Shown: piece after piece, positions 2,049 through 43,802 of the stretch
How the letters are laid out: each line of letters begins with the position of its first letter
How positions within the stretch are numbered: the first letter of the stretch is position 1
NCBI RefSeq assembly: GCF_013315695.1
Contig: NZ_CP054353.1
DNA: 64,000 bases
DNA from: Escherichia coli
GTDB taxonomy: Bacteria; Pseudomonadota; Gammaproteobacteria; Enterobacterales; Enterobacteriaceae
Direction: 5' to 3' (one strand)
Translations under genes and position numbers: made by a program
Notes under the pieces: model-generated
The model's database searches: none
What the model saw: only the letters and a program-made list of their open reading frames with translations
Told to the model about the DNA's origin: nothing

Positions 2049-3287
2049 TTATTCCGCGTTTTCGTGAATATGTTTGCTGCTGGCGGGTAGTAAACCGTCG
2101 GCACGGAACATCGCTTTAATTCCACGAATCGCCTGGCGAATACGATCGCGGTTTTCAATCAGTGCAAAGCGAACATGGGTGTCGCCGTAGTCGCCAAAGC
2201 CAATCCCTGGAGAGACACAGACCTTCGCTTCGTTAAGCAATTTCTTGGCAAATTCCAGTGAACCCATGGCCGCATATGGTTCCGGGATTTTCGCCCAGAC
2301 ATACATCGAAGCCTTCGGCATTTCGACCATCCAGCCCGCTTCATGCAGCCCTTTTACCAGTACATCACGGCGGCGTTTGTACTGTTCGGCAATATCGCGC
2401 ACGCACTGTTGATCGCCCTCCAGTGCCGCAATCGCCGCCACCTGCAACGGCGTAAAGGTGCCGTAATCGTGATAGCTTTTAATACGTGCCAACGCGCTGA
2501 CCAGCGTTTTGTTACCGACCATAAAGCCGATACGCCAGCCCGCCATGTTGTAACTTTTCGACAGCGTAAAGAACTCGACCGCCACATCGCGTGCACCTGG
2601 CACCTGCATGATTGACGGCGCTTTCCAGCCATCGTAGACGATATCGGCATAGGCCAGGTCATGGACCACCAGCACATCGTAGCGTTTCGCCAGCGCCACT
2701 ACTTTTTCGAAGAACTCCAGCTCCACGCATTGCGCAGTTGGGTTCGAGGGGAAGCCGAGGATCATCATCTTCGGTTTCGGATAACTTTCGCGAATGGCAC
2801 GTTCCAGTTCGTTGAAGAAATCGACACCTTCCACCAGCGGCACTGAGCGTACCTGCGCCCCGGCAATCACCGCGCCGTAAATATGAATGGGGTAACTTGG
2901 ATTCGGCACCAGCACTGTGTCACCGTGATCCAGCGTCGCCAGCATCAGATGCGCCAGGCCCTCTTTCGAACCAATAGTGACGATGGCTTCTGATTCCGGG
3001 TCGATTTCAACGTCGTAGCGATCCTGATACCAGCGGGAAATGGCGCGACGTAGCCGCGGAATGCCGCGTGAAGTGGAGTAACCATGCGTGTCCGGGCGCT
3101 GGGCCACCGTACATAATTTTTCGACGATATGCGGCGGAGTCGCACCGTCCGGGTTACCCATACTGAAATCGATAATATCTTCGCCGCGCCGACGCGCAGC
3201 CATTTTCAGTTCAGCGGTAATGTTAAAAACGTAGGGCGGGAGACGATCAATACGCGTAAAGCGACGTTCAGGGCGAGTGTCAGCCAT
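2049..3287 (-). CDS. alaC: PLP-dependent aminotransferase (glutamate-pyruvate aminotransferase AlaC), 412 aa
   Basis: 412-aa ORF with class I aminotransferase features, including the [15 protein letters not shown]-lysine region. Confidence 0.9.
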
Positions 3288-3663
3288 AATGTCCTCAGAT
3301 TAACGTTAGCGCCCGGACCGTCCGAGCGACGTCGCCACGATGGTGGCTGTTTTGAAAATAGCCTGATTAATTTCTGTCTGTCCAGCGTTTTAGAACATTT
3401 TTATCAATGGCTTTAAATGAGGAACTCCACTTCAAAAACAGGAAATTTATCTGCGCTAACAAGAAAATTACCACTCATTTTATTAACATTATAATTTCAA
3501 TAAATTTACCAAGCAGATGTGCATTATCAAGAGATGCATTGCTAATACACCATTTATCCTTCAATCCCCTTTTAAAATTGTGGCTTTTCCTCAAAAACGG
3601 CCTGCTGGTCATCAGCCTTCAGGTTACCTATCATAGAGGTTTAATCCTTATTCAGAGTCACCC

Positions 3664-5361
3664 GTGCACGAAATATTCAACATGCTGCTGGCGGTCTTCG
3701 ATCGGGCAGCGTTAATGCTTATCTGCCTGTTTTTTCTCATCCGTATCCGCCTGTTTCGCGAACTGTTGCACAAGTCGGCACACTCACCGAAAGAGCTGCT
3801 CGCCGTTACCGCCATTTTCTCGCTGTTCGCCCTGTTCAGCACCTGGTCCGGCGTTCCCGTAGAAGGCTCGCTGGTGAACGTACGTATTATCGCGGTGATG
3901 TCAGGCGGAATTCTGTTTGGCCCGTGGGTGGGCATCATTACCGGCGTGATTGCGGGTATTCACCGTTATTTAATTGACATCGGCGGCGTGACGGCGATCC
4001 CCTGCTTTATCACCAGCATTCTGGCGGGTTGTATATCGGGCTGGATCAACCTGAAAATCCCTAAAGCGCAGCGTTGGCGCGTCGGTATTCTCGGCGGCAT
4101 GTTGTGTGAAACGTTGACCATGATTCTGGTGATTGTCTGGGCACCAACTACCGCGTTGGGGATCGATATCGTCTCTAAAATCGGCATTCCAATGATCCTC
4201 GGTAGCGTCTGTATCGGCTTTATTGTGCTTCTGGTGCAAAGCGTTGAGGGCGAAAAAGAGGCCAGCGCCGCGCGGCAGGCCAAGCTGGCGCTGGATATCG
4301 CCAACAAAACGCTGCCGCTGTTTCGCCATGTCAATAGCGAGTCATTACGCAAAGTCTGCGAAATTATCCGCGATGACATTCACGCCGATGCGGTGGCGAT
4401 TACTAATACCGATCATGTGCTGGCCTACGTTGGCGTGGGTGAACATAACTATCAGAATGGCGATGACTTCATTAGCCCGACTACCCGTCAGGCGATGAAT
4501 TATGGAAAAATCATCATTAAAAACAATGATGAAGCCCACCGCACACCAGAGATTCATTCCATGCTGGTGATCCCATTGTGGGAGAAAGGCGTTGTGACCG
4601 GAACGCTGAAAATTTACTACTGCCACGCGCATCAGATCACCTCGTCATTACAGGAAATGGCGGTCGGTCTGTCACAAATCATCTCCACGCAACTGGAGGT
4701 TTCGCGCGCTGAGCAGCTGCGTGAAATGGCAAATAAGGCAGAGCTTCGCGCCCTGCAAAGCAAAATTAATCCCCATTTCCTGTTTAACGCTTTGAACGCT
4801 ATTTCATCGTCAATCCGCCTGAATCCGGATACTGCTCGCCAGCTGATCTTTAATTTGTCGCGCTATCTGCTCTATAACATTGAATTAAAAGATGATGAGC
4901 AAATCGATATCAAAAAAGAGCTGTATCAAATTAAAGACTATATTGCCATTGAGCAGGCCCGCTTTGGCGACAAGCTGACAGTTATCTATGATATTGATGA
5001 AGAGGTGAATTGCTGCATTCCCAGCCTGCTGATCCAGCCGTTGGTGGAAAACGCCATTGTCCACGGTATCCAGCCTTGCAAAGGTAAAGGCGTTGTCACC
5101 ATCAGCGTTGCAGAGTGCGGTAATCGGGTACGTATTGCGGTGCGAGATACCGGGCACGGCATCGATCCAAAGGTGATTGAGCGGGTCGAAGCGAATGAAA
5201 TGCCGGGCAATAAAATTGGCCTGCTGAATGTCCATCATCGTGTGAAGTTATTGTATGGCGAGGGGCTGCATATCCGCCGCCTGGAACCAGGAACGGAAAT
5301 TGCGTTTTACATTCCTAACCAACGCACCCCAGTCGCCTCACAGGCTACGTTATTGCTTTGA
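3664..5361 (+). CDS. ypdA: LytS-type sensor histidine kinase, 565 aa (YpdA; pyruvate-responsive two-component sensor in K-12)
   Basis: GTG start at 3664; N-terminal multi-TM region, central GAF-like region, C-terminal kinase with [10 protein letters not shown] motif and ATPase domain. Confidence 0.9.
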
Positions 5362-5375
5362 GCCGGAGTGATATT

Positions 5376-6110
5376 GTGAAAGTCATCATTGTTGAAGACG
5401 AATTCCTGGCACAACAGGAACTGAGCTGGCTAATTAAAGAGCACAGCCAGATGGAGATTGTCGGCACCTTTGACGACGGTCTGGACGTGTTGAAGTTTTT
5501 GCAGCATAACCGCGTCGACGCCATTTTTCTGGATATCAATATTCCGTCGCTGGATGGTGTGTTGCTGGCGCAAAACATCAGCCAGTTCGCCCATAAACCG
5601 TTTATTGTGTTCATCACCGCGTGGAAAGAACATGCGGTAGAAGCGTTTGAACTGGAAGCGTTTGACTACATTCTCAAACCGTATCAGGAGTCACGCATTA
5701 CCGGGATGCTGCAAAAACTGGAAGCAGCCTGGCAACAACAGCAGACCAGCAGTACGCCTGCCGCGACGGTAACGCGTGAGAATGACACCATTAATCTGGT
5801 GAAAGATGAGCGAATCATCGTCACGCCCATTAACGATATCTATTACGCCGAAGCGCATGAGAAAATGACCTTTGTCTATACGCGGCGTGAATCCTACGTA
5901 ATGCCGATGAACATTACCGAGTTTTGCAGCAAGCTGCCGCCGTCGCATTTTTTCCGCTGCCATCGCTCATTTTGTGTCAATCTGAACAAAATCCGCGAGA
6001 TCGAACCGTGGTTTAATAACACCTATATTCTGCGGCTGAAAGATCTGGATTTTGAAGTGCCGGTCAGCCGCAGCAAAGTTAAAGAATTCCGCCAGTTAAT
6101 GCATCTTTAA
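5376..6110 (+). CDS. ypdB: LytTR-family response regulator, 244 aa (YpdB)
   Basis: Chose GTG at 5376 (VKVIIVEDE) with GGAG upstream; receiver domain plus C-terminal LytTR DNA-binding domain; immediately follows ypdA. Confidence 0.9.
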   Translation: MKVIIVEDEFLAQQELSWLIKEHSQMEIVGTFDDGLDVLKFLQHNRVDAIFLDINIPSLDGVLLAQNISQFAHKPFIVFITAWKEHAVEAFELEAFDYILKPYQESRITGMLQKLEAAWQQQQTSSTPAATVTRENDTINLVKDERIIVTPINDIYYAEAHEKMTFVYTRRESYVMPMNITEFCSKLPPSHFFRCHRSFCVNLNKIREIEPWFNNTYILRLKDLDFEVPVSRSKVKEFRQLMHL

Positions 6111-6122
6111 TCGGGAACTTTC

Positions 6123-6980
6123 ATGAAAGCACCAGGCTTGCCCGCCGATCAACAATTTTTCGCCGATCTGTTCAGCGGCCTGGTGCTTAACCCGCAACTA
6201 CTGGGGCGCGTCTGGTTTGCCAGCCAGCCTGCCTCATTGCCAGTGGGCAGTTTATGTATTGATTTTCCCCGTCTGGATATCGTGCTACGCGGCGAATACG
6301 GCAATCTGCTGGAAGCAAAGCAGCAACGTATGGTGGAAGGAGAAATGCTGTTTATTCCGGCACGCGCGGCTAATTTACCGGTCAACAACAAACCGGTGAT
6401 GCTGTTAAGCCTGGTGTTCGCACCGACCTGGCTTGGGTTATCGTTTTACGATAGCCGCACCACGTCGTTGTTGCATCCTGCCCGCCAGATCCAGCTTCCC
6501 AGCCTGCAACGCGGCGAAGGTGAAGCGATGCTTACCGCCCTCACCCATCTTAGCCGTTCGCCGCTGGAGCAGAATATCATTCAGCCACTGGTGTTAAGTT
6601 TGCTGCATCTTTGCCGCAACGTGGTGAATATGCCACCGGGCAATTCGCAGCCGCGCGGCGATTTTCTCTATCACAGCATTTGTAACTGGGTTCAGGATAA
6701 TTATGCCCAGCAGCTCACCCGCGAGAGCGTGGCTCAGTTTTTTAATATCACGCCCAATCATCTGTCAAAACTGTTTGCTCAGCATGGAACAATGCGTTTT
6801 ATCGAGTATGTTCGCTGGGTACGAATGGCAAAGGCAAGGATGATTTTGCAGAAATATCATCTGTCGATTCATGAAGTGGCACAGCGTTGCGGTTTTCCGG
6901 ACAGCGACTATTTTTGTCGCATTTTCCGGCGTCAGTTTGGCCTGACGCCGGGAGAGTACAGCGCCCGTTTTCAGGGCTAA
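6123..6980 (+). CDS. ypdC: AraC/XylS-family transcriptional regulator, 285 aa
   Basis: C-terminal AraC-type HTH region (HLSKLF...RFIEYVRWVRMAKA...); 13 bp downstream of ypdB. Confidence 0.85.
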   Translation: MKAPGLPADQQFFADLFSGLVLNPQLLGRVWFASQPASLPVGSLCIDFPRLDIVLRGEYGNLLEAKQQRMVEGEMLFIPARAANLPVNNKPVMLLSLVFAPTWLGLSFYDSRTTSLLHPARQIQLPSLQRGEGEAMLTALTHLSRSPLEQNIIQPLVLSLLHLCRNVVNMPPGNSQPRGDFLYHSICNWVQDNYAQQLTRESVAQFFNITPNHLSKLFAQHGTMRFIEYVRWVRMAKARMILQKYHLSIHEVAQRCGFPDSDYFCRIFRRQFGLTPGEYSARFQG

Positions 6981-6982
6981 CG

Positions 6983-9478
6983 TCAGAAGGTTAATTCCGT
7001 TTCCAGCAGCGTCAGGATGCTTTGCGCATCTTGCGCGGCGAACAGCGACTGGCGGAAGTTTTTATTCACCAGTTTGCGCGCCAGCTGCGAGAAGACTTTC
7101 ACATGGCTCATCCCTTCGTTAGCACCTAACGTCAGCATGATCACCAGTTCGACTTCGCCCATTTCTGACTGCCAGTCAACCGGTTTCACCAGCCGGGCAA
7201 TGCTGATACTGGAATGACGGATCCACTGAGATTTGGTGTGCGGGATCGCTACGCCAAAACCAACGCCGGTGGTAACAATCTCTTCCCGCTGCCAGACATC
7301 TTCTTCCAGCTCAAACGGATGTTCAGTACGCCCGTTAACGCCGAGGTTACCGCACAGGAACTGGATCGCCTGCTCTTTATTGCTAAAGGCCTGATCAACG
7401 AAGATATTCTCCAGCGCCAGCAGCGGGCGAACGTCTTCTTCCGGCGTAAACGCGGTGAGTAACGCTTCAATCTCCTGCGCGCTGCGGCATTCACATGCCT
7501 GACGCGCCAGTTCCCGACACGCCTCGCTATCCAGTTGACGAAGCTGGCTTTTCACCGCCGGAATGCGCGGGCTACTCATACTCAGCTCGTCCAGGCCCAG
7601 CCCAAGCAGTAGCGGCAGATAACGACTTTCACCGCCCAGTTCACCGCAAATACCTACCCATTTACCCCGCTGATGCGCAGTGGTAACAATCTGCTGCAAC
7701 ATGCGCAGGAACGATGGCGTAATCGGGTTATACAGCGGCGATACGCGCGGGTTATTACGATCGACCGCATACAGATACTGGGTCATATCGTTGGAGCCGA
7801 TACTGAAGAAATCGACCTCATCGCAGAAGTGATCGATGATGTAGCACACCGACGGCACTTCCACCATGATACCCAGCGTAATCGTCTCTGCATGACGCAG
7901 GCCATCGCGCTTAAGCTCAACGATCGCTTTTTGGATCTCGCCCTTCACCCATAAGATCTGATCGAGGCTGTGAACCATCGGGATCATCAACTGGGCGTTG
8001 CCGAAACAGGCAGCACGCAAAATCGCCCGCAGTTGAGTGCGGAACAGGCCAGCAAATTCCGGGTAAATACGTACCGCGCGATAGCCGAGGAACGGGTTCT
8101 CTTCCTGGGGAATATTCAGATAAGGAATGCTTTTATCGCCGCCGATGTCCATCGTGCGGAAGATAATCGGCTTGTCGCCCGCCGCCAGTAGCACCTGCTG
8201 GTAGGCTTCAAATTGCTCCTGCTCGTCCGGCGCGCTGTCGCGATCCATATAGAGCATTTCGGTACGGAACAGCCCGACACCTTCCGCGCCGTTGGCAAAC
8301 GCGCCTGGCGCTTCCAGCGCGGTGCCGATATTCGCCGCAATATCAATACGCTTGTTATCACGGGAATAGGCCAGCTGCGCGGCGGCCTGCGCCTGTTGTT
8401 TTTGGCGTTTATCCGCCAGCGTCTGCGCAACCTGATAATAACCGCTCACCGCGTCATTCGGGTTAATCGCCAGCACGCCGCACTGGGCGTCAAGCACTGC
8501 AGGTTGCCCGGCATAACGGGCAATCGCATCCAGCGGCAGGCCGCTCAGTACCGGGATCGCCGAAGCGCGGGCCAGGATCAGGGTATGCGAGGTGCGCCCG
8601 GTTTTCTCCAGAATCATGCCCGCAAGATTTTTTAAATCGAGGCTCAAAAACTGGCTTGGGGTTAAATCTTCAGCCACCAGAATAGTCGGTTTTTCAAGCA
8701 CCAGATTATTGCGCGGTTTTAGTTCCGGCCAGGTGATATGCAGCAACTGTTCGCTGATATCGCGAATGTCGCTGACCCGCTCGCGCAGATAATCGCTGGC
8801 AGAAGCAGAAAGTTTGGCACAAACCTGCTCCATATTGCTGATGATCGCCGCCCCCAGCCCCTGATGCTGTTCTGCCATCAGGTGACGGATATTGCCTGCA
8901 AATTCATCATCCTGAATCAGCGACAAATGGGCGCTGAGGATAGTTTTGCTTTCGCCGTCACGCTCACGCAATTGCTGGTTCAGTTGCTCGGCAAGCGTTG
9001 CCAGACTGTGCTCCAGCAGGGTGGAATCTTGCGCACTGGCCGGTATTGCCCGATAACTGTCGAGGCTGTCGCTCTGTAACAGGGTCAGCGTACCCACGCC
9101 GACGCCGCTTGCCAGCACATTGCCGTACAGTAAATCAGGATTCAGACGGCTTAATGAACGCGGCAGCGGATGCGCCGTCAGTTCTGCCTGCGTTGGCTGG
9201 ACGCTGTCGCTGTCGATAAAGCGCGCCTGGATGTACTCTTCCAGCACGCGCCGCGCCTGCTCTTCATCGCTGCCGCTAATGTTCAGGCTGCAACTGTCAT
9301 TAAATAGGGTGCCGGTGCCAATCAGCGCCAGCGAGCTTTTCGCATCTGCCTTTGCGTTCTGGCGATGGTTGATGAAGGTGATTTCGCTTTGCCACTGGCT
9401 GCACTGTTCTTTAAGTTCCCACGCCGGACGAGCATGCAGACCGTTAGGCAGAGGACAGAGAAATTGAATCGTTAGCAT
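6983..9478 (-). CDS. fryA: PTS multiphosphoryl transfer protein (EIIA-HPr-EI fusion), 831 aa
   Basis: N-terminal HPr-like domain (GLHARPA), internal EI core and C-terminal EIIA-like domain; last gene of a minus-strand operon. Confidence 0.9.
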   Translation of the reverse strand: MLTIQFLCPLPNGLHARPAWELKEQCSQWQSEITFINHRQNAKADAKSSLALIGTGTLFNDSCSLNISGSDEEQARRVLEEYIQARFIDSDSVQPTQAELTAHPLPRSLSRLNPDLLYGNVLASGVGVGTLTLLQSDSLDSYRAIPASAQDSTLLEHSLATLAEQLNQQLRERDGESKTILSAHLSLIQDDEFAGNIRHLMAEQHQGLGAAIISNMEQVCAKLSASASDYLRERVSDIRDISEQLLHITWPELKPRNNLVLEKPTILVAEDLTPSQFLSLDLKNLAGMILEKTGRTSHTLILARASAIPVLSGLPLDAIARYAGQPAVLDAQCGVLAINPNDAVSGYYQVAQTLADKRQKQQAQAAAQLAYSRDNKRIDIAANIGTALEAPGAFANGAEGVGLFRTEMLYMDRDSAPDEQEQFEAYQQVLLAAGDKPIIFRTMDIGGDKSIPYLNIPQEENPFLGYRAVRIYPEFAGLFRTQLRAILRAACFGNAQLMIPMVHSLDQILWVKGEIQKAIVELKRDGLRHAETITLGIMVEVPSVCYIIDHFCDEVDFFSIGSNDMTQYLYAVDRNNPRVSPLYNPITPSFLRMLQQIVTTAHQRGKWVGICGELGGESRYLPLLLGLGLDELSMSSPRIPAVKSQLRQLDSEACRELARQACECRSAQEIEALLTAFTPEEDVRPLLALENIFVDQAFSNKEQAIQFLCGNLGVNGRTEHPFELEEDVWQREEIVTTGVGFGVAIPHTKSQWIRHSSISIARLVKPVDWQSEMGEVELVIMLTLGANEGMSHVKVFSQLARKLVNKNFRQSLFAAQDAQSILTLLETELTF

Positions 9479-16461: not shown

Positions 16462-17709
<1,248 letters not shown>

Positions 17710-17712
17710 CTA

Positions 17713-17734
17713 AAACATAGCCTTTGCTATGTTT
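17713..17734 (-). promoter_or_regulatory. MntR operator in the mntH promoter
   Basis: AAACATAGC-N4-GCTATGTTT inverted repeat 13 bp upstream of mntH start; matches the published MntR box AAACATAGCAAAGGCTATGTTT read on the minus strand. Confidence 0.6.
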
Positions 17735-17749
17735 CATGCTATGTCAAAC

Positions 17750-17768
17750 GAGAATGATTATCAAATTC
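17750..17768 (-). promoter_or_regulatory. candidate Fur box in the mntH promoter
   Basis: GAGAATGATTATCAAATTC matches the 19-bp Fur consensus GATAATGATAATCATTATC at 14 of 19 positions by eye. Confidence 0.4.
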
Positions 17769-18035
17769 ATTTAAGTGGATTGTGATGATTTCTTTGATAG
17801 ACCAGAATTATGACGACGAAAAGATTGATGACTTGAATGTTGTGATTATGTTTAATGTTAGCACATTTACATAACTTTCAGCTTCCATACACAACATAGC
17901 AGAAATGTATGACAGCTCACTATTTTTGAAGCTTGTCACAGGACGTCATTATAGTGTGTGTCAGATCTCGTTTTCCTTAACCATGTTACATAGAATGTGC
18001 ACGGAAATTTAACCTGCCTCATATTTGGAGCAAAT

Positions 18036-19238
18036 ATGGACCGCGTCCTTCATTTTGTACTGGCACTTGCCGTTGTTGCGATTCTCGCACTGCTGGTAAG
18101 CAGCGACCGCAAAAAAATTCGTATCCGTTATGTTATTCAACTGCTTGTTATCGAAGTGTTACTGGCGTGGTTCTTCCTGAACTCCGACGTTGGTTTAGGC
18201 TTCGTGAAAGGCTTCTCCGAAATGTTCGAAAAACTGCTCGGATTTGCCAACGAAGGGACTAACTTCGTCTTTGGTAGCATGAATGATCAAGGCCTGGCAT
18301 TCTTCTTTCTGAAAGTGCTGTGCCCAATCGTCTTTATCTCTGCATTGATCGGTATTCTCCAGCACATTCGCGTGTTGCCAGTGATTATCCGCGCAATTGG
18401 TTTCCTGCTTTCCAAAGTCAACGGTATGGGCAAACTGGAATCCTTTAACGCCGTCAGCTCCCTGATTCTGGGTCAGTCTGAAAACTTTATTGCCTATAAA
18501 GATATCCTCGGCAAAATCTCCCGCAATCGTATGTACACCATGGCAGCAACGGCGATGTCCACCGTGTCGATGTCCATCGTTGGTGCATACATGACCATGC
18601 TGGAGCCGAAATATGTCGTTGCGGCGCTGGTACTGAACATGTTCAGCACCTTTATCGTGCTGTCGCTGATCAACCCTTACCGTGTTGATGCCAGTGAAGA
18701 AAACATTCAGATGTCCAACCTGCACGAAGGTCAGAGCTTCTTCGAAATGCTGGGTGAATACATTCTGGCAGGTTTCAAAGTTGCCATTATCGTTGCCGCA
18801 ATGCTGATCGGCTTTATCGCCCTGATCGCCGCGCTGAACGCACTGTTTGCTACCGTGACTGGCTGGTTTGGCTACAGCATCTCCTTCCAGGGCATCCTGG
18901 GCTACATCTTCTATCCGATTGCATGGGTGATGGGTGTTCCTTCCAGTGAAGCACTGCAAGTGGGCAGTATCATGGCGACCAAACTGGTTTCCAACGAGTT
19001 CGTTGCGATGATGGATCTGCAGAAAATTGCTTCCACGCTCTCTCCGCGTGCTGAAGGCATCATCTCTGTGTTCCTGGTTTCCTTCGCTAACTTCTCATCA
19101 ATCGGGATTATCGCAGGTGCAGTTAAAGGCCTGAATGAAGAGCAAGGTAACGTGGTTTCTCGCTTCGGTCTGAAACTGGTTTACGGCTCTACCCTGGTGA
19201 GTGTGCTGTCTGCGTCAATCGCAGCACTGGTGCTGTAA
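18036..19238 (+). CDS. nupC: concentrative nucleoside:H+ symporter (CNT family), 400 aa
   Basis: ORF 17997-19238; chose ATG at 18036 (MDRVLHF) with GGAG upstream. Confidence 0.9.
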
Positions 19239-19257
19239 GACCATACATAAAAAAGCC

Positions 19258-19270
19258 GGGGATAATTCCC
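19258..19270. repeat. left 13-bp target-site duplication of IS4
   Basis: GGGGATAATTCCC immediately outside the IS4 end; identical copy at 20697-20709. Confidence 0.75.
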
Positions 19271-20696
19271 TAATGCCAGTCAGTTAAGCAACTGACTGGC
19301 TCTTTTTCGGGGCTGTGGGGTATTTCCAGGGCCTCTCCTTTACCACTCTCGGGAAGGCCCTTTCCCTTCTTGTCGGTAATTTCACAAGTTGTCCCATACT
19401 TGCAAGATCGCGCATCAGCTCCGGTATACGTCCCGGTGAAGCGCCCTGCAATGTCATCAGCATTCTCATCACCATTCCGCATGATTCTGAGAAACTCAGT
19501 TGATTCGGCCAGTAACCTTTCAGATGTTCCGCCATTTTAATCATCTGATATCTCACCAGATTATAAGCCAGTAAGACACCCCACAGCTCTTGCTCCACAA
19601 GCTCCGGTTTTTTACTTCTCAGCGTCAGCCTGCTCAGTTGCATCGTCTGTTTTATCTCCCTGTATCCCAGTTCGATTTCCCAGCGATGACTGTACAGATC
19701 CGCCATTTCTCCTCCGGGGAAGCGCATGGCGTCCGTCATCGACGTCAGCAGATGGCAGACTTTTCCTTTGCGCGTCACGGTCAGCAGGCGGGCTGTCACT
19801 TCATTTCCCAGTCCCGGCCACTTTTTTCGTGCCTGCGGGCTGGTTTTCAGCTTCACCAGATGATCGCCTTTACCCAGTTTTCTGATCTCTTCATATTGCG
19901 CTCCCTTTCTGAGAGGTATCATCCAGTGGCGGTGTTCTCCCGCCAGGCTCCAGGCATTTAACAGTCCCAGTGAGTAATAACCTTTATCCATTAACGTCAG
20001 AGTGTTATCGCCGGTTTGTTCTATAAGTTGCTCAGCAAGCTCATTTTCGCTGTTCTTCATCGTGCCGAAGGCTGCAGCCGTCAGCAGATGGCTGGTCAGT
20101 TCCATCTGGCAGACCATTTTGACCTGCGGGTAGAGCGCCGGGTTCCCGGCATGTGTCTGGCGGGGGAAGGCTGCATCGTTCTCTGGTGTATCCGGTGTGC
20201 GCCAGAACACACCATCGATGGCCAGCAGGGTCAGGCCGCACCAGTGCGGATGCGGCGTGGCGTTATGCCAGAGCTGCGCTGTTTTCGTGAACACGCGGCG
20301 GACAGCCTCACTTCCCAGGCGCTGGCGGGCCTGAATAACGGCACTGGGGGCAACGAAGGGGCGATTGCCCGGCAGCATGATGTCCAGGCGATTCACAATC
20401 TGGTGAAGAGGTTCTTTACGCTCAAGCGCCATGCCAACAATACACCAGACCATCATTTCGAGGGGAAGACGGCGCTTGCGTAGCGTTACAGTACCTGATT
20501 CGGCAAGGCAACGAGAGATGAGTTCGGGGTCGAGGTAATCCCCCAGAGAAGTCAGTGGGTTACGCAGAGAATCGTAACGGGATACCAGATCAAGAGCCTG
20601 TCCAATGTGCATAAAAAAATCCGGAAACAAGTGAGCGTTTCCGGATTCTTACACAGCCACTGGATCGGTCAACTGATCCTTAACTGATCGGCATTA
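19271..20696 (-). mobile_element. IS4 insertion sequence, complete (1426 bp)
   Basis: Terminal inverted repeats TAATGCCAGTCAGTTAAG (19271-19288) and TAATGCCGATCAGTTAAG (reverse complement of 20679-20696), 16 of 18 identical; length exactly 1426 bp; one 442-aa IS4-family transposase ORF; flanked by a 13-bp direct repeat. Confidence 0.85.
19284..20612 (-). CDS. insG: IS4 transposase (DDE, IS4 family), 442 aa
   Basis: ORF 19284-20630; ATG at 20612 gives MHIGQALDL... (442 aa), with an in-frame TTG 6 codons upstream; contains the IS4-family YREK signature ([15 protein letters not shown]). Confidence 0.85.
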
Positions 20697-20709
20697 GGGG
20701 ATAATTCCC
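20697..20709. repeat. right 13-bp target-site duplication of IS4
   Basis: GGGGATAATTCCC; removing IS4 and one copy restores the palindrome AAAAAAGCCGGGGATAATTCCCCGGTTTTTT. Confidence 0.75.
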
Positions 20710-20725
20710 CGGTTTTTTACGCCTG

Positions 20726-22915
20726 TTAATCAGCTAATGGCTGCGGGCGACCAATCAAATACCCTTGCAGATATTGCACCCCGAGCTTATGCAATAGCGC
20801 CTGCTGCTGTTGCGTCTCGACAAACTCAGCGACCACACTCAATGACTTCGCTTTCGCCAGATCGGTAATTGATCTCACAATCATCGCATCCAGCGTATTC
20901 GTGACGATATCTTTCACAAAGACGCCATCAATTTTGATGATATCAGCCTGCAAACGTTTTAACCGTTCGTAGTTGGCATAGCCGGTGCCAAAGTCATCAA
21001 TCGCAATCCGGAAACCAAACTTATGCAGTTGCTCGATGTTGTACATGCTGCTTTCTGCGTTAGAAAACGCCTGCTCCTCGGTGATCTCAAGAATGACCGC
21101 CTGCGGGGAGATGTAATAACGCTTAAACAGACGAATAATCCGCCCGGCAATATTCTTTTGCAGCAGCGTGAGCGGCATTAAATTGACTGAAAATCGTGGA
21201 CCTTTTTTGTCGCAAGGGTGTGTTGCCAGCCATTTCAACAAGGATTCCAGCACTTGCAAATCAAAACGCGCGCTAAGGTTAAACTGAGCAATAAGGGGCA
21301 GAAACTTATCCGGGGTCATAATGCCGCCGTCATACTTCAGTCGCGCGAGGATCTCATCATAACCTTCACCCTCTTTGTTGCGAATTGGCTGGGCGTAGAG
21401 CAGCAAATCACCTTGATCTAACGCCGTGCGAATGGTATTCAGCAATAGCACCTGTTTAGTGGTTTGCCCGGAAACCATCTCCTCTCTGCTATCCAGCGCC
21501 AGCACATGATGATGTGCGCAGGATTGCTCCGCCAGCCAGCTTAACTGCCCCAACAAGGGTTGCAGGGTTTCCTGATTTCCATCAAAATGCCCCCAGGCAG
21601 CACCATAGCCCATATCCAGCCCGGTATTGTTCCAGTGAATTTGCCGACTATTCAGGATGTTAACCATATGCTGGAGTCGCCCTTCCGTTTCCGGTCCACT
21701 CAGCACTAACAGCAGTTCACTACCCGGCAATTGATACAACTTTTCGTTTTCCTGCATCAACGGCAGCAGCGTACGGTAAATTGAGCTGATACAGTGAACG
21801 CGCATCATTAAGCCGTAATGACGACTCATAAACTCAAGATTATCAATGCGCAGGCAACAAAAACTCTTGCCCGCCTCTTGCTCCGGCGCTTGCTCCAACG
21901 CACGAAAGTTGGGTAGGAGCGTTAACGGATCGGTCAGCGCCTGCAAATGCCAGCGGCGGTTAAGCCATTCACTACGATGATAAATACGCACCATATAGAG
22001 CAGGCAAACACTAAAGGAAATCAGTACTGCGAGAATAAATGCCAGCGAATATTCGGTTAGTACCCCTTGCAAAAAGTTCTGGTTATAATTCAGAAGGCAA
22101 AGCGTTGAAACAGCCCAGGTGAGATTTAAAAACGGATAGCGAAGCTTACCGACACCGAGGGTAAAGATGATAAAGAAAACAGGTACCAGGTAACCGGCAA
22201 TAAAGTCATTTTCATACGGTGTGCACATCAGAAGTAGCAGCACGCTAAGAGCTGCCAGCCAGCTTAAGGTAAATGCGCGTTTCTCTTTGCTCAACGACGG
22301 AGCGATATCCCTACGCCACAATATCTGTGCAAAGTGGGGACTTACAATCATGCGGGTGAGATAGTAAAAAAGCATGTTGTAAATCAGCACTGCGGTGAAA
22401 AGGCTTAGCAAATCAACGACCGTGAAAATGGCATCCGCATCGCCGAAAAAGGTAGATATCTTTAGCGGAAAATCAAAGAAATTTCCCACAAGATACATGC
22501 TGCATTTGATGCCAATCGGCGCCACCAAACCAAGCCAGAACAGACGTTGCCAGACGTATCGGCTGGTCAATCCATAACGCCAACGCGTCCCCAATTGCAA
22601 GCGTAATATTGCACAGGCACACAGGACTGCAAACGCCTGGCTGCCGATCATGACGGCGGTCTGTAAAAAAGTGAGATGAAGGTTCCACAGATTGGTGCAA
22701 AACATCCCGCATAAAATGGGAACGACACCACGCCAGCCAAAGATAAACAAGATTGACAGCATTACGCACAGTGGCATCCACGCCAGAAAGATATAATTGG
22801 AATGGATAACAGCAAGTGGCGAAATTAAACGGGATAGCTGAATAAGTACCACGGTGAGCGTAAACGCTAGTGTGAATATCTTGATATTTTTTATCAGGTT
22901 ATGCTCCACAAACAT
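20726..22915 (-). CDS. pdeA: c-di-GMP phosphodiesterase with N-terminal membrane sensor, degenerate GGDEF and EAL domains, 729 aa
   Basis: ORF 20726-22975; chose ATG at 22915 (MFVEHNLIK); multi-TM N-terminus and C-terminal EAL-type sequence (EITEEQAF..., DDFGTGYA). Confidence 0.8.
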   Translation of the reverse strand: MFVEHNLIKNIKIFTLAFTLTVVLIQLSRLISPLAVIHSNYIFLAWMPLCVMLSILFIFGWRGVVPILCGMFCTNLWNLHLTFLQTAVMIGSQAFAVLCACAILRLQLGTRWRYGLTSRYVWQRLFWLGLVAPIGIKCSMYLVGNFFDFPLKISTFFGDADAIFTVVDLLSLFTAVLIYNMLFYYLTRMIVSPHFAQILWRRDIAPSLSKEKRAFTLSWLAALSVLLLLMCTPYENDFIAGYLVPVFFIIFTLGVGKLRYPFLNLTWAVSTLCLLNYNQNFLQGVLTEYSLAFILAVLISFSVCLLYMVRIYHRSEWLNRRWHLQALTDPLTLLPNFRALEQAPEQEAGKSFCCLRIDNLEFMSRHYGLMMRVHCISSIYRTLLPLMQENEKLYQLPGSELLLVLSGPETEGRLQHMVNILNSRQIHWNNTGLDMGYGAAWGHFDGNQETLQPLLGQLSWLAEQSCAHHHVLALDSREEMVSGQTTKQVLLLNTIRTALDQGDLLLYAQPIRNKEGEGYDEILARLKYDGGIMTPDKFLPLIAQFNLSARFDLQVLESLLKWLATHPCDKKGPRFSVNLMPLTLLQKNIAGRIIRLFKRYYISPQAVILEITEEQAFSNAESSMYNIEQLHKFGFRIAIDDFGTGYANYERLKRLQADIIKIDGVFVKDIVTNTLDAMIVRSITDLAKAKSLSVVAEFVETQQQQALLHKLGVQYLQGYLIGRPQPLAD

Positions 22916-39945: not shown

Positions 39946-39970
39946 TGCCAGCTTGTTAAAAATGCGTAAA

Positions 39971-39996
39971 AAAGCACCTTTTCAGGTGCTTTTTTG
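39971..39996 (+). terminator. cysK rho-independent terminator
   Basis: AGCACCT-TTTC-AGGTGCT stem followed by TTTTTTG. Confidence 0.65.
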
Positions 39997-42922: not shown

Positions 42923-42950
42923 AAAAATGGCGCCCATCGGCGCCATTTTT
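42923..42950. terminator. bidirectional terminator shared by crr and pdxK
   Basis: AAAAATGGCGCC-CATC-GGCGCCATTTTT perfect 12-bp stem with A-run and T-run arms, abutting the pdxK stop. Confidence 0.75.
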
Positions 42951-43802
42951 TTATGCTTCAGCCAGAGGCGGCAAAATCAATTCATCGCTCTCATGCTGCT
43001 GGGTATAGCGCATCACTTCCAGTACGCGCAACCCCGCGCGGTGCACCGCATCGTTTAACGCCTTCCCTTTCAGCAAACCACTGATAAGCTGAGCACAAAA
43101 CAGGTCGCCAGTCCCTTTCAGGTCGGTTTTTACCCGTGAATGGGAAATGACATTCACGCTGTCGGCACTCACCACCACCACCTGCATCTCCTGATTTTCT
43201 TCATTGCCGGAGGCGCTGGTAATCACCACCCATTTTAATGTGTCTGAAAGCAGACTTTTTGCGGCAGCAATGGCACTGTCGAGATCGCGGCAATCTTTAC
43301 CGGTCAGGATTTCCAGCTCAAAGATATTGGGGGTAATTCCCTGTGCCAGCGGCAGTAAATATTGTCGATACGCCTCGGGAAGGTCAGGTTTGACATAAAT
43401 TCCGCTATCAATATCGCCAATCACCGGATCGACCATGATCAATAGGTCAGGATGGTCTTTGCGTAGCGCAGTCAGCCACTCGGCAAGGATTTTGATTTGC
43501 GATGCCGTTCCCATATAGCCCGTGGTTACAGCACGAAGTTGGCGCAGCGCATCACGCTCCTGAAGCGCACGCAAATAACCGCTAAACCATTCATCCGGAA
43601 TCGCACCACCGTAGAAAGTGTCATAATGCGGCGTATTGCTCAGCAATACCGTCGGCACGGCAAAGACATTCAGGCCGTTCTGTTTGATAGCAGGCACCGC
43701 AATGCTGTTGCCTACGCTGCCGTACACTACCTGCGACTGCACGGCAACGATATCCGCCTGCAGTGCCCTGCTCTTATCGTTAAACAACAACAAACTACTC
43801 AT
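42951..43802 (-). CDS. pdxK: pyridoxal/pyridoxine/pyridoxamine kinase, 283 aa
   Basis: PfkB/ribokinase-like fold with PdxK-type sequence. Confidence 0.9.

Follow-up and report, generated by a model that had tools for sequence, protein, structure and literature searches.

The short gap between nupC and pdeA in Escherichia coli raises two questions: why insertion sequences (IS elements) land there, and what becomes of transcription on either side once they have. In a stretch of 64,000 nucleotides (nt) of contig NZ_CP054353.1 (the window, always taken at its full length), this gap is occupied by a copy of IS4. Our analysis makes it very probable that this copy is a canonical and evolutionarily recent IS4 transposition into a preferred target and that its dyad is shared with IS186; its effect, as we infer it, would be near neutral.

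The IS4 copy and its pre-insertion site

The element spans positions 19271–20696 (1426 base pairs, bp), with its transposase gene on the minus strand. Many RefSeq features annotated as 'IS4-like element IS4 family transposase' match it with 100% identity. Of its 1426 nt, 4 depart from the type IS4 of MG1655 (99.7% identity), the two transposases differing at 2 of 442 residues. The transposase, InsG, runs on the minus strand from an ATG at 20612 to a stop at 19284 (442 amino acids); in RefSeq it is often given as 448 amino acids, starting from an upstream TTG at 20630. This single-reading-frame DDE transposase scored 304.5 bits against NCBIfam NF033592 (cutoff 115), contains the Pfam domains Nterm_IS4 (PF13006) and DDE_Tnp_1 (PF01609), and carries at residue 307 the Y(2)R(3)E(6)K motif that serves as the signature of the IS4 family (PMC2266710). 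Its imperfect 18-bp terminal inverted repeats, TAATGCCAGTCAGTTAAG at the transposase-distal end (19271–19288) and TAATGCCGATCAGTTAAG, read on the minus strand, at the transposase-proximal end (20679–20696), both start with TAATGCC and agree at 16 of 18 positions. When the window was scanned with a degenerate pattern for IS4 ends, for which 0.01 matches were expected by chance, only two places matched, namely the two ends of this element. A repeat search found a perfect 13-bp direct repeat, GGGGATAATTCCC, at 19258–19270 and 20697–20709, adjoining both inverted repeats exactly; at other IS4 copies the duplication is 11–14 bp long. A preliminary description of this DNA had named the element IS4, which the type-sequence alignment and the family and domain matches bear out, and its figures for the length of the element, the match between its ends, the transposase and the direct repeat were all recovered on re-measurement.

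The element lies between two convergent open reading frames, annotated in RefSeq at identical or near-identical loci as nupC (nucleoside permease, plus strand, 18036–19238) and pdeA (phosphodiesterase of cyclic dimeric guanosine monophosphate, c-di-GMP; minus strand, 20726–22915). On the left, the nupC stop codon is followed after 10 nt by a remnant at 19249–19270, made up of six A (19249–19254), G, CC and the left copy of GGGGATAATTCCC; on the right, a remnant at 20697–20718 consists of the other copy of GGGGATAATTCCC, then C, GG and six T (20713–20718), with the pdeA stop codon 8 nt from this T-run. Deleting IS4 and one repeat yields AAAAAAGCCGGGGATAATTCCCCGGTTTTTT, an exact match to genomes in which the site is empty, for example CE10. 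The rebuilt site reads A6-G-CC-GGGG-ATAATT-CCCC-GG-T6, in which an 18-bp palindrome forms the stem CCGGGGA/TCCCCGG around the loop TAAT. The site has folding energies of -21.6 kcal/mol for the nupC strand and -24.0 kcal/mol for the pdeA strand (z about -5). A terminator scan scored the empty copy in CE10 as terminator-like on both strands. Folding and scan together support the view that the pre-insertion site was a bidirectional terminator-like hairpin, GC-rich and with a T-run on each strand, downstream of two convergent stop codons, much as the preliminary description had rebuilt it. The same description had placed the insertion in the loop. The loop does lie within the duplication, but the cut is wider than its 4 nt, and the 13-bp duplication takes in 4–5 bp of each stem arm; it holds the loop and the upper stem because the dyad lies midway between the staggered cuts. 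As a side observation, the T-run 3' of the palindrome varies in length, with six T in the window and AR_0013, seven in MG1655, VR50 and 23CRST047, and eight in E686, 32-4 and PEC011.

Strain MS 21-1 (NZ_CP146670) has flanks 100.0% identical to those of the window and a precisely empty site (the corresponding span measures 4562 bp, that is, 6001 - 1426 - 13), and the insertion must therefore be recent within its lineage. MSB1_4I (NZ_LR898874), by comparison, is identical to the window over 6 kb. Among 5426 complete E. coli genomes, the set used in all surveys below, 2686 carry IS4, at 5482 places in all, with a median of one place per carrier genome and a maximum of 32. IS4 occupies 18 places in MSB1_4I and 15–20 in the related strains CE10, IAI39, AR_0013 and OZ546943, showing that the element has expanded in this lineage. 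The copy in the window has its reading frame and ends intact, and it is accompanied by a near-isogenic strain with an empty site and by a matching strain rich in IS4 places.

Target choice and recurrence at the site

The target rule of IS4 was derived from 13 distinct reconstructed empty sites, taken from two protein look-ups and the window. All 13 show the same order of an A-run, 3 nt, a duplication of 11–14 bp, another 3 nt and a T-run, with A at positions -5 and -6 in 13 of 13 and T at positions +4 to +6 in 12–13; the three flanking bases to the left of the duplication and the three to its right complement one another in 9–11 of the 13. Ten sites fold at or below -14 kcal/mol over 44 nt, compared with -7.3 +/- 3.5 kcal/mol for 44-mers drawn at random from these loci. 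A stop codon lies no more than 75 bp upstream of nine sites (adhE, bamD, eno, rpoD/mug, degS/mdh, bipA, aroA, nupC/pdeA and, more loosely, opgH), and four sites are between convergent genes. The site in the window fits this empirical consensus, which in turn agrees with AAA-N20-TTT, the target consensus that IS4 is said to have (it reportedly goes back to Mayaux and colleagues in 1984 and to Mahillon and Chandler in 1998); the target of the IS4 resident in K-12 fits AAA-N20-TTT as well. For the IS4 subgroup, to which the element belongs, 'spectacular' arm specificity has been described (PMC2266710). In our reading IS4 picks an A-run and a T-run that flank, each at a distance of 3 nt, a core of 11–14 bp that becomes the duplication, and in E. 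coli this shape is usually that of an intrinsic terminator hairpin with an A-tract upstream.

Some further observations concern IS4 targets elsewhere. The adhE-tdk terminator is another IS4 hotspot, with duplications of 12, 12 and 11 bp across genomes, and so is the opgH-yceK hairpin, which is occupied in both orientations. Within the window itself, two unoccupied palindromes with an A-run, a GC-rich hairpin and a T-run fit the IS4 target (AAAAAAGCACCTTTTCAGGTGCTTTTTT at 39968–39995 and AAAAATGGCGCCCATCGGCGCCATTTTTT at 42923–42951). An orientation bias, in which the distal end of IS4 would come to lie beside the stronger T-run, was hinted at by adhE and rpoD and was rejected: the site L016 shows the opposite arrangement, and symmetric sites take both orientations.

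For IS186 the published target is GGGG(N6/N7)CCCC in either orientation, and single sites were struck up to 16 times in mutation-accumulation lines, the genome having only 19 N6 sites (PMC5009759). Both the empty nupC-pdeA site and the right copy of the duplication present such a target, GGGGATAATTCCCC. In the 64-kb window GGGG-N6-CCCC occurs only once, at 20697–20710, where it is intact; since the right copy of the duplication keeps it, the locus is still open to IS186. The nupC/pdeA terminator thus meets the IS4 rule and, independently, the IS186 rule, and both elements have therefore arrived at the same dyad many times. Their overlap is a coincidence, one palindrome satisfying two rules. 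The preliminary description had noted that IS186 favours palindromes of a G-run and a C-run, which matches the published rule, and had seen in this palindrome a possible recurrent landing pad for insertions. That explanation holds for IS186 but not for IS4, which is drawn by the shape of A-run, hairpin and T-run present at 13 of 13 sites.

The occupant of the gap in MG1655 is IS186C, in agreement with the preliminary description. Its junctions, GGGGATAATTCC against CATAAGCG on one side and CGCTTATG against GGATAATTCCCCGG on the other, lie symmetrically around the same dyad; with a palindromic target, the exact boundary of IS186 is ambiguous, and so is the length of its duplication. When the complete genomes were searched with junction-specific 180-nt queries, the site was empty (uninterrupted) in 4441, held IS186/IS421 in the MG1655 orientation in 472 and in the opposite orientation in 465, and held IS4 in the orientation of the window in nine and in the opposite orientation in six. 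IS186 is accordingly about 60 times more frequent here than IS4 (937 genomes against 15). The two orientations of each element, the differing duplications of IS4 and one genome that holds both elements strongly uphold the earlier suggestion of a recurrent landing pad. CE10 was discarded as an occupied genome: a 6-kb search had listed ten genomes in the window orientation, but in CE10 the site is empty and an IS4 5 kb off had been joined to the match, leaving nine. That copy (NC_017646.1, locus 5889–8997), 5 kb from the empty nupC-pdeA site, abuts a degraded IS200/IS605 element (tnpA/tnpB pseudogenes) downstream of yfeD, and its left flank, ending in taaaaccccgccctgaaggac, again contains an A-run.

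Eight loci with IS4 at the nupC-pdeA site were compared in detail. The left junction of IS4 falls on the same nucleotide in all eight, while the duplication is 13 bp long in the window, MEI4BO-21, E686, 32-4, PEC011 and 23CRST047 and 12 bp long in AR_0013 and VR50. The IS4 alleles are 0–13 nt apart, and at least three haplotypes of the nupC flank are represented. VR50 and MEI4BO-21, for instance, have a common flank haplotype, yet their duplications are of unequal length and their IS4 copies differ at 11 positions. When orientation, duplication length, IS4 allele and flank are combined, at least five independent IS4 insertions follow. MEI4BO-21 (NZ_CM149565.1) is also the one genome in which the two elements stand in tandem (2272–5048 of the locus), in the order nupC-IS4-IS186-pdeA. 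Its IS186 lies within the right-hand copy of the 13-bp IS4 duplication, where GGGG-N6-CCCC was kept, and IS4 must therefore have come first and IS186 second.

Could the occupied state instead be due to common descent, with a single ancient insertion of IS4 and a single one of IS186, each inherited or spread by recombination, and no hotspot at all? Clonal groups certainly swell the counts (K-12 derivatives; SWYHX138.261ft/33gt; 23CRST047/049; E686/PEC011, with identical IS4 and flanks). Each element is nevertheless found both ways round in the proportions given above, orientation, which alone calls for two or more IS186 events, being the only basis on which the independence of the IS186 events was judged. 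The two lengths of IS4 duplication, the divergence of VR50 and MEI4BO-21 on a shared nupC haplotype, the empty site in a near-isogenic strain and the repeated strikes of IS186 at single GGGG-N6-CCCC sites in mutation-accumulation lines (PMC5009759) all speak for recurrent insertion, and we regard common descent as very unlikely. Still more improbable, to the point where it can be set aside, is an error of identity, in which the element would be IS186 or some other IS4-family member, or the 13-bp repeat would be part of the element and not a target duplication. The filling of this gap by IS186 in MG1655 and the blurring of IS186 boundaries by a palindromic target might invite such an error. The near-complete identity to type IS4 refutes it, as does the 23-bp end of IS186, CATAAGCGCTAACTTAAGGGTTG, for which no match was found in the window even with two mismatches allowed; genomes with an empty site, moreover, hold exactly one copy of GGGGATAATTCCC.

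Transcription across the insertion

What remains of the old hairpin is small. By folding, the nupC transcript at the left remnant forms a mini-hairpin of 4–5 bp without a T-run, and a mini-hairpin of the same size forms on the pdeA side. Terminator-like structures are, however, found within IS4 at both ends. Facing nupC transcription on the plus strand, positions 19275–19307 (GCCAGTCAGTT-AAGC-AACTGACTGGC, followed by TCTTTTT) form a perfect 11-bp hairpin that starts 5 nt inside IS4; it was the top match of the terminator scan in the region, folds at -18.7 kcal/mol (z -5.9) and overlaps the transposase stop codon of the opposite strand. On the minus strand, facing pdeA transcription, AATCCGGAAAC-N8-GTTTCCGGATT at 20613–20650 is followed by U7, which meets the AUG of the transposase. 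In a read-through RNA covering 20665 to 20585, the predicted fold (-34.6 kcal/mol, z -6.0) buries both the U-run and the AUG. A sigma-70-like promoter for the transposase is predicted on the minus strand at 20645–20672 (TTGACC, a 16-nt spacer and TG-n-AAGAAT; 9 of 12 consensus matches), and RNA starting near 20638, the predicted start, shows no significant structure (-6.7 kcal/mol, z +0.3). These models suggest that transcripts from outside, here from pdeA, form the 5' hairpin, whose 5' arm would be missing from RNA that starts at the predicted IS4 promoter. An Rfam scan of 18900–21100 found no family.

In the mechanism that we propose, IS4 would carry inward-facing terminator-like structures at both ends, and nupC and pdeA would probably still be terminated. 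Relative to the empty site, transcription from nupC would stop about 50 nt farther on, before running antisense to most of the transposase gene; transcription from pdeA would stop about 100 nt farther on, or its read-through would be left untranslated. The transposase would be shielded from external transcription in both the sense and the antisense direction, and the insertion would be nearly neutral. Near neutrality is proposed for IS4 insertions more generally, because the element would bring replacement terminators with it while landing in the terminators of important genes.

The preliminary description had taken the opposite view, that the insertion parts each stem from its distal T-run and so probably weakens the termination of both genes. 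Its first half stands, since only mini-hairpins are left. On its second half we differ: that the insertion cripples the shared terminator, so that nupC is read antisense to the transposase and pdeA is read into IS4, seems rather unlikely to us, even though the original 7-bp GC stem is reduced on each side to 4–5 bp and each transcript has lost its adjacent T-run. That view overlooked the terminator-like structures brought in by IS4, among them the best match in the region, 5 nt inside the element on the nupC side, and the predicted hairpin with U7 upstream of the transposase AUG on the pdeA side. It also sits poorly with the habit of IS4 of entering the terminators of essential or highly expressed genes (eno, rpoD, degS/mdh, adhE, bamD), which would be costly if termination were abolished. 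On these structural predictions the earlier reading of the functional consequence is probably wrong.

A bolder extension would make IS4 a dedicated terminator-homing element that swaps terminator for terminator. It would split the hairpin and supply inward-facing terminators at both ends, so that host operons stay insulated and the transposase is shielded, and terminators with GGGG-N6-CCCC would be dual hotspots with IS186. We hold this to be possible and offer it tentatively, leaning somewhat against it. Several points count against our interpretation, both of the site and of its consequences. About 33 genomes were assigned to no class at the nupC-pdeA site; one that was sampled, EM20-18-50, holds IS421 with a slightly different junction. 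The genome set is biased towards clinical and laboratory strains, with many K-12 derivatives, so that figures such as the occupancy of about 17% of the surveyed genomes (about one in six, the reference strain MG1655 included) are not population frequencies. Among the 13 IS4 sites, three are no terminators (two are inside genes and one is between divergent genes) and yet keep the A/T arms, so that the target is determined by DNA sequence or shape and not by terminator function as such. The minus-strand hairpin at 20613–20650 escaped the terminator scan, because its U-run can pair with an upstream A-rich stretch and the stem was extended greedily, and this hairpin was assessed by folding instead; it may act by hiding the AUG instead of by terminating. 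Finally, that the IS4 hairpins act as terminators is a prediction, and so is the promoter (a weak call, at 9 of 12).

Two side observations complete the picture of the element and its surroundings. At the transposase-proximal end of IS4, three GATC (Dam) sites (20663, 20675 and 20686) cluster within the terminal 34 bp. The two positions at which the inverted repeats disagree (GATC versus AGTC) leave the distal end without a Dam site and simultaneously form the perfect 11-bp hairpin there. This distribution suggests that IS4 may be subject to Dam-dependent, end-specific regulation. Farther away, at the 5' end of mntH (window positions about 17681–17770), overlapping tiny open reading frames are annotated inconsistently, as ypeD (29 amino acids) in K-12, VR50 and PEC011 and as 'hypothetical proteins' of 14 or 18 amino acids elsewhere.

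Meaning of the site and comparison with known systems

This is known biology: the element is a known one, its type of target was reported decades ago, and matching RefSeq genomes already have the insertion annotated as IS4. The present work contributes a quantified dual hotspot, a terminator-shaped IS4 target derived afresh from reconstructed sites and a testable terminator-swap hypothesis. The site offers a clean natural example of target-site convergence, in which one 18-bp palindrome answers to two unrelated recognition rules. It also means that the nupC-pdeA intergenic region of MG1655 is not the ancestral state, and that Term-seq data from K-12 are uninformative on the empty terminator, because the MG1655 site holds IS186. 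Comparative, 3' untranslated region and terminator studies of nupC and pdeA should allow for three or more allelic states. If the hairpins at the IS4 ends do terminate, this would explain how some lineages carry 15–30 copies of IS4 beside essential genes; and the terminator swap, if true, would be a common and possibly expression-relevant polymorphism at dual hotspots such as nupC/pdeA.

Compared with the IS4 of K-12 (insG, MG1655 4502090–4503515), the copy in the window has the same length of 1426 bp, the same 18-bp inverted repeats, a duplication in the same range of 12–13 bp and the same AAA-N~20-TTT target. The two occupy different chromosomal locations: the target of the K-12 copy, within the KpLE2 region, is a weak one that forms no hairpin, whereas that of the copy in the window is a strong bidirectional terminator. 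IS186C of MG1655 (IS186/IS421) shares with it the intergenic palindrome and cuts symmetric about the same dyad, but is about 1.34 kb long, has 23-bp repeats beginning with CATAAGCGC and follows the target rule GGGG(N6/N7)CCCC. IS186 is a different member of the IS4 family, listed in its IS231 subgroup (PMC5009759).

Two further groups of elements invite comparison, one for the way in which the transposase is protected and the other for the choice of target. IS10 and IS50 protect themselves from outside transcription by a fold-back that sequesters the start of the transposase. In IS4, likewise, transcripts entering from outside are predicted to bury the transposase AUG in a long helix, which the predicted native transcript cannot do. 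Unlike in IS10 and IS50, the IS4 helix is followed by U7, making it terminator-like as well, and a second terminator-like hairpin lies at the other end of the element. Among elements that choose hairpins, IS1397/ISKpn1, ISRm22 and members of the IS110 family target repetitive extragenic palindromic (REP) sequences, and ISRm22 itself belongs to the IS4 family (PMC1525189). With these elements IS4 has in common that it homes to intergenic, hairpin-forming DNA, sparing genes. Its target differs from theirs in that A- and T-run arms surround a variable core without any repeated-sequence family, and it coincides with terminators, not REPs.

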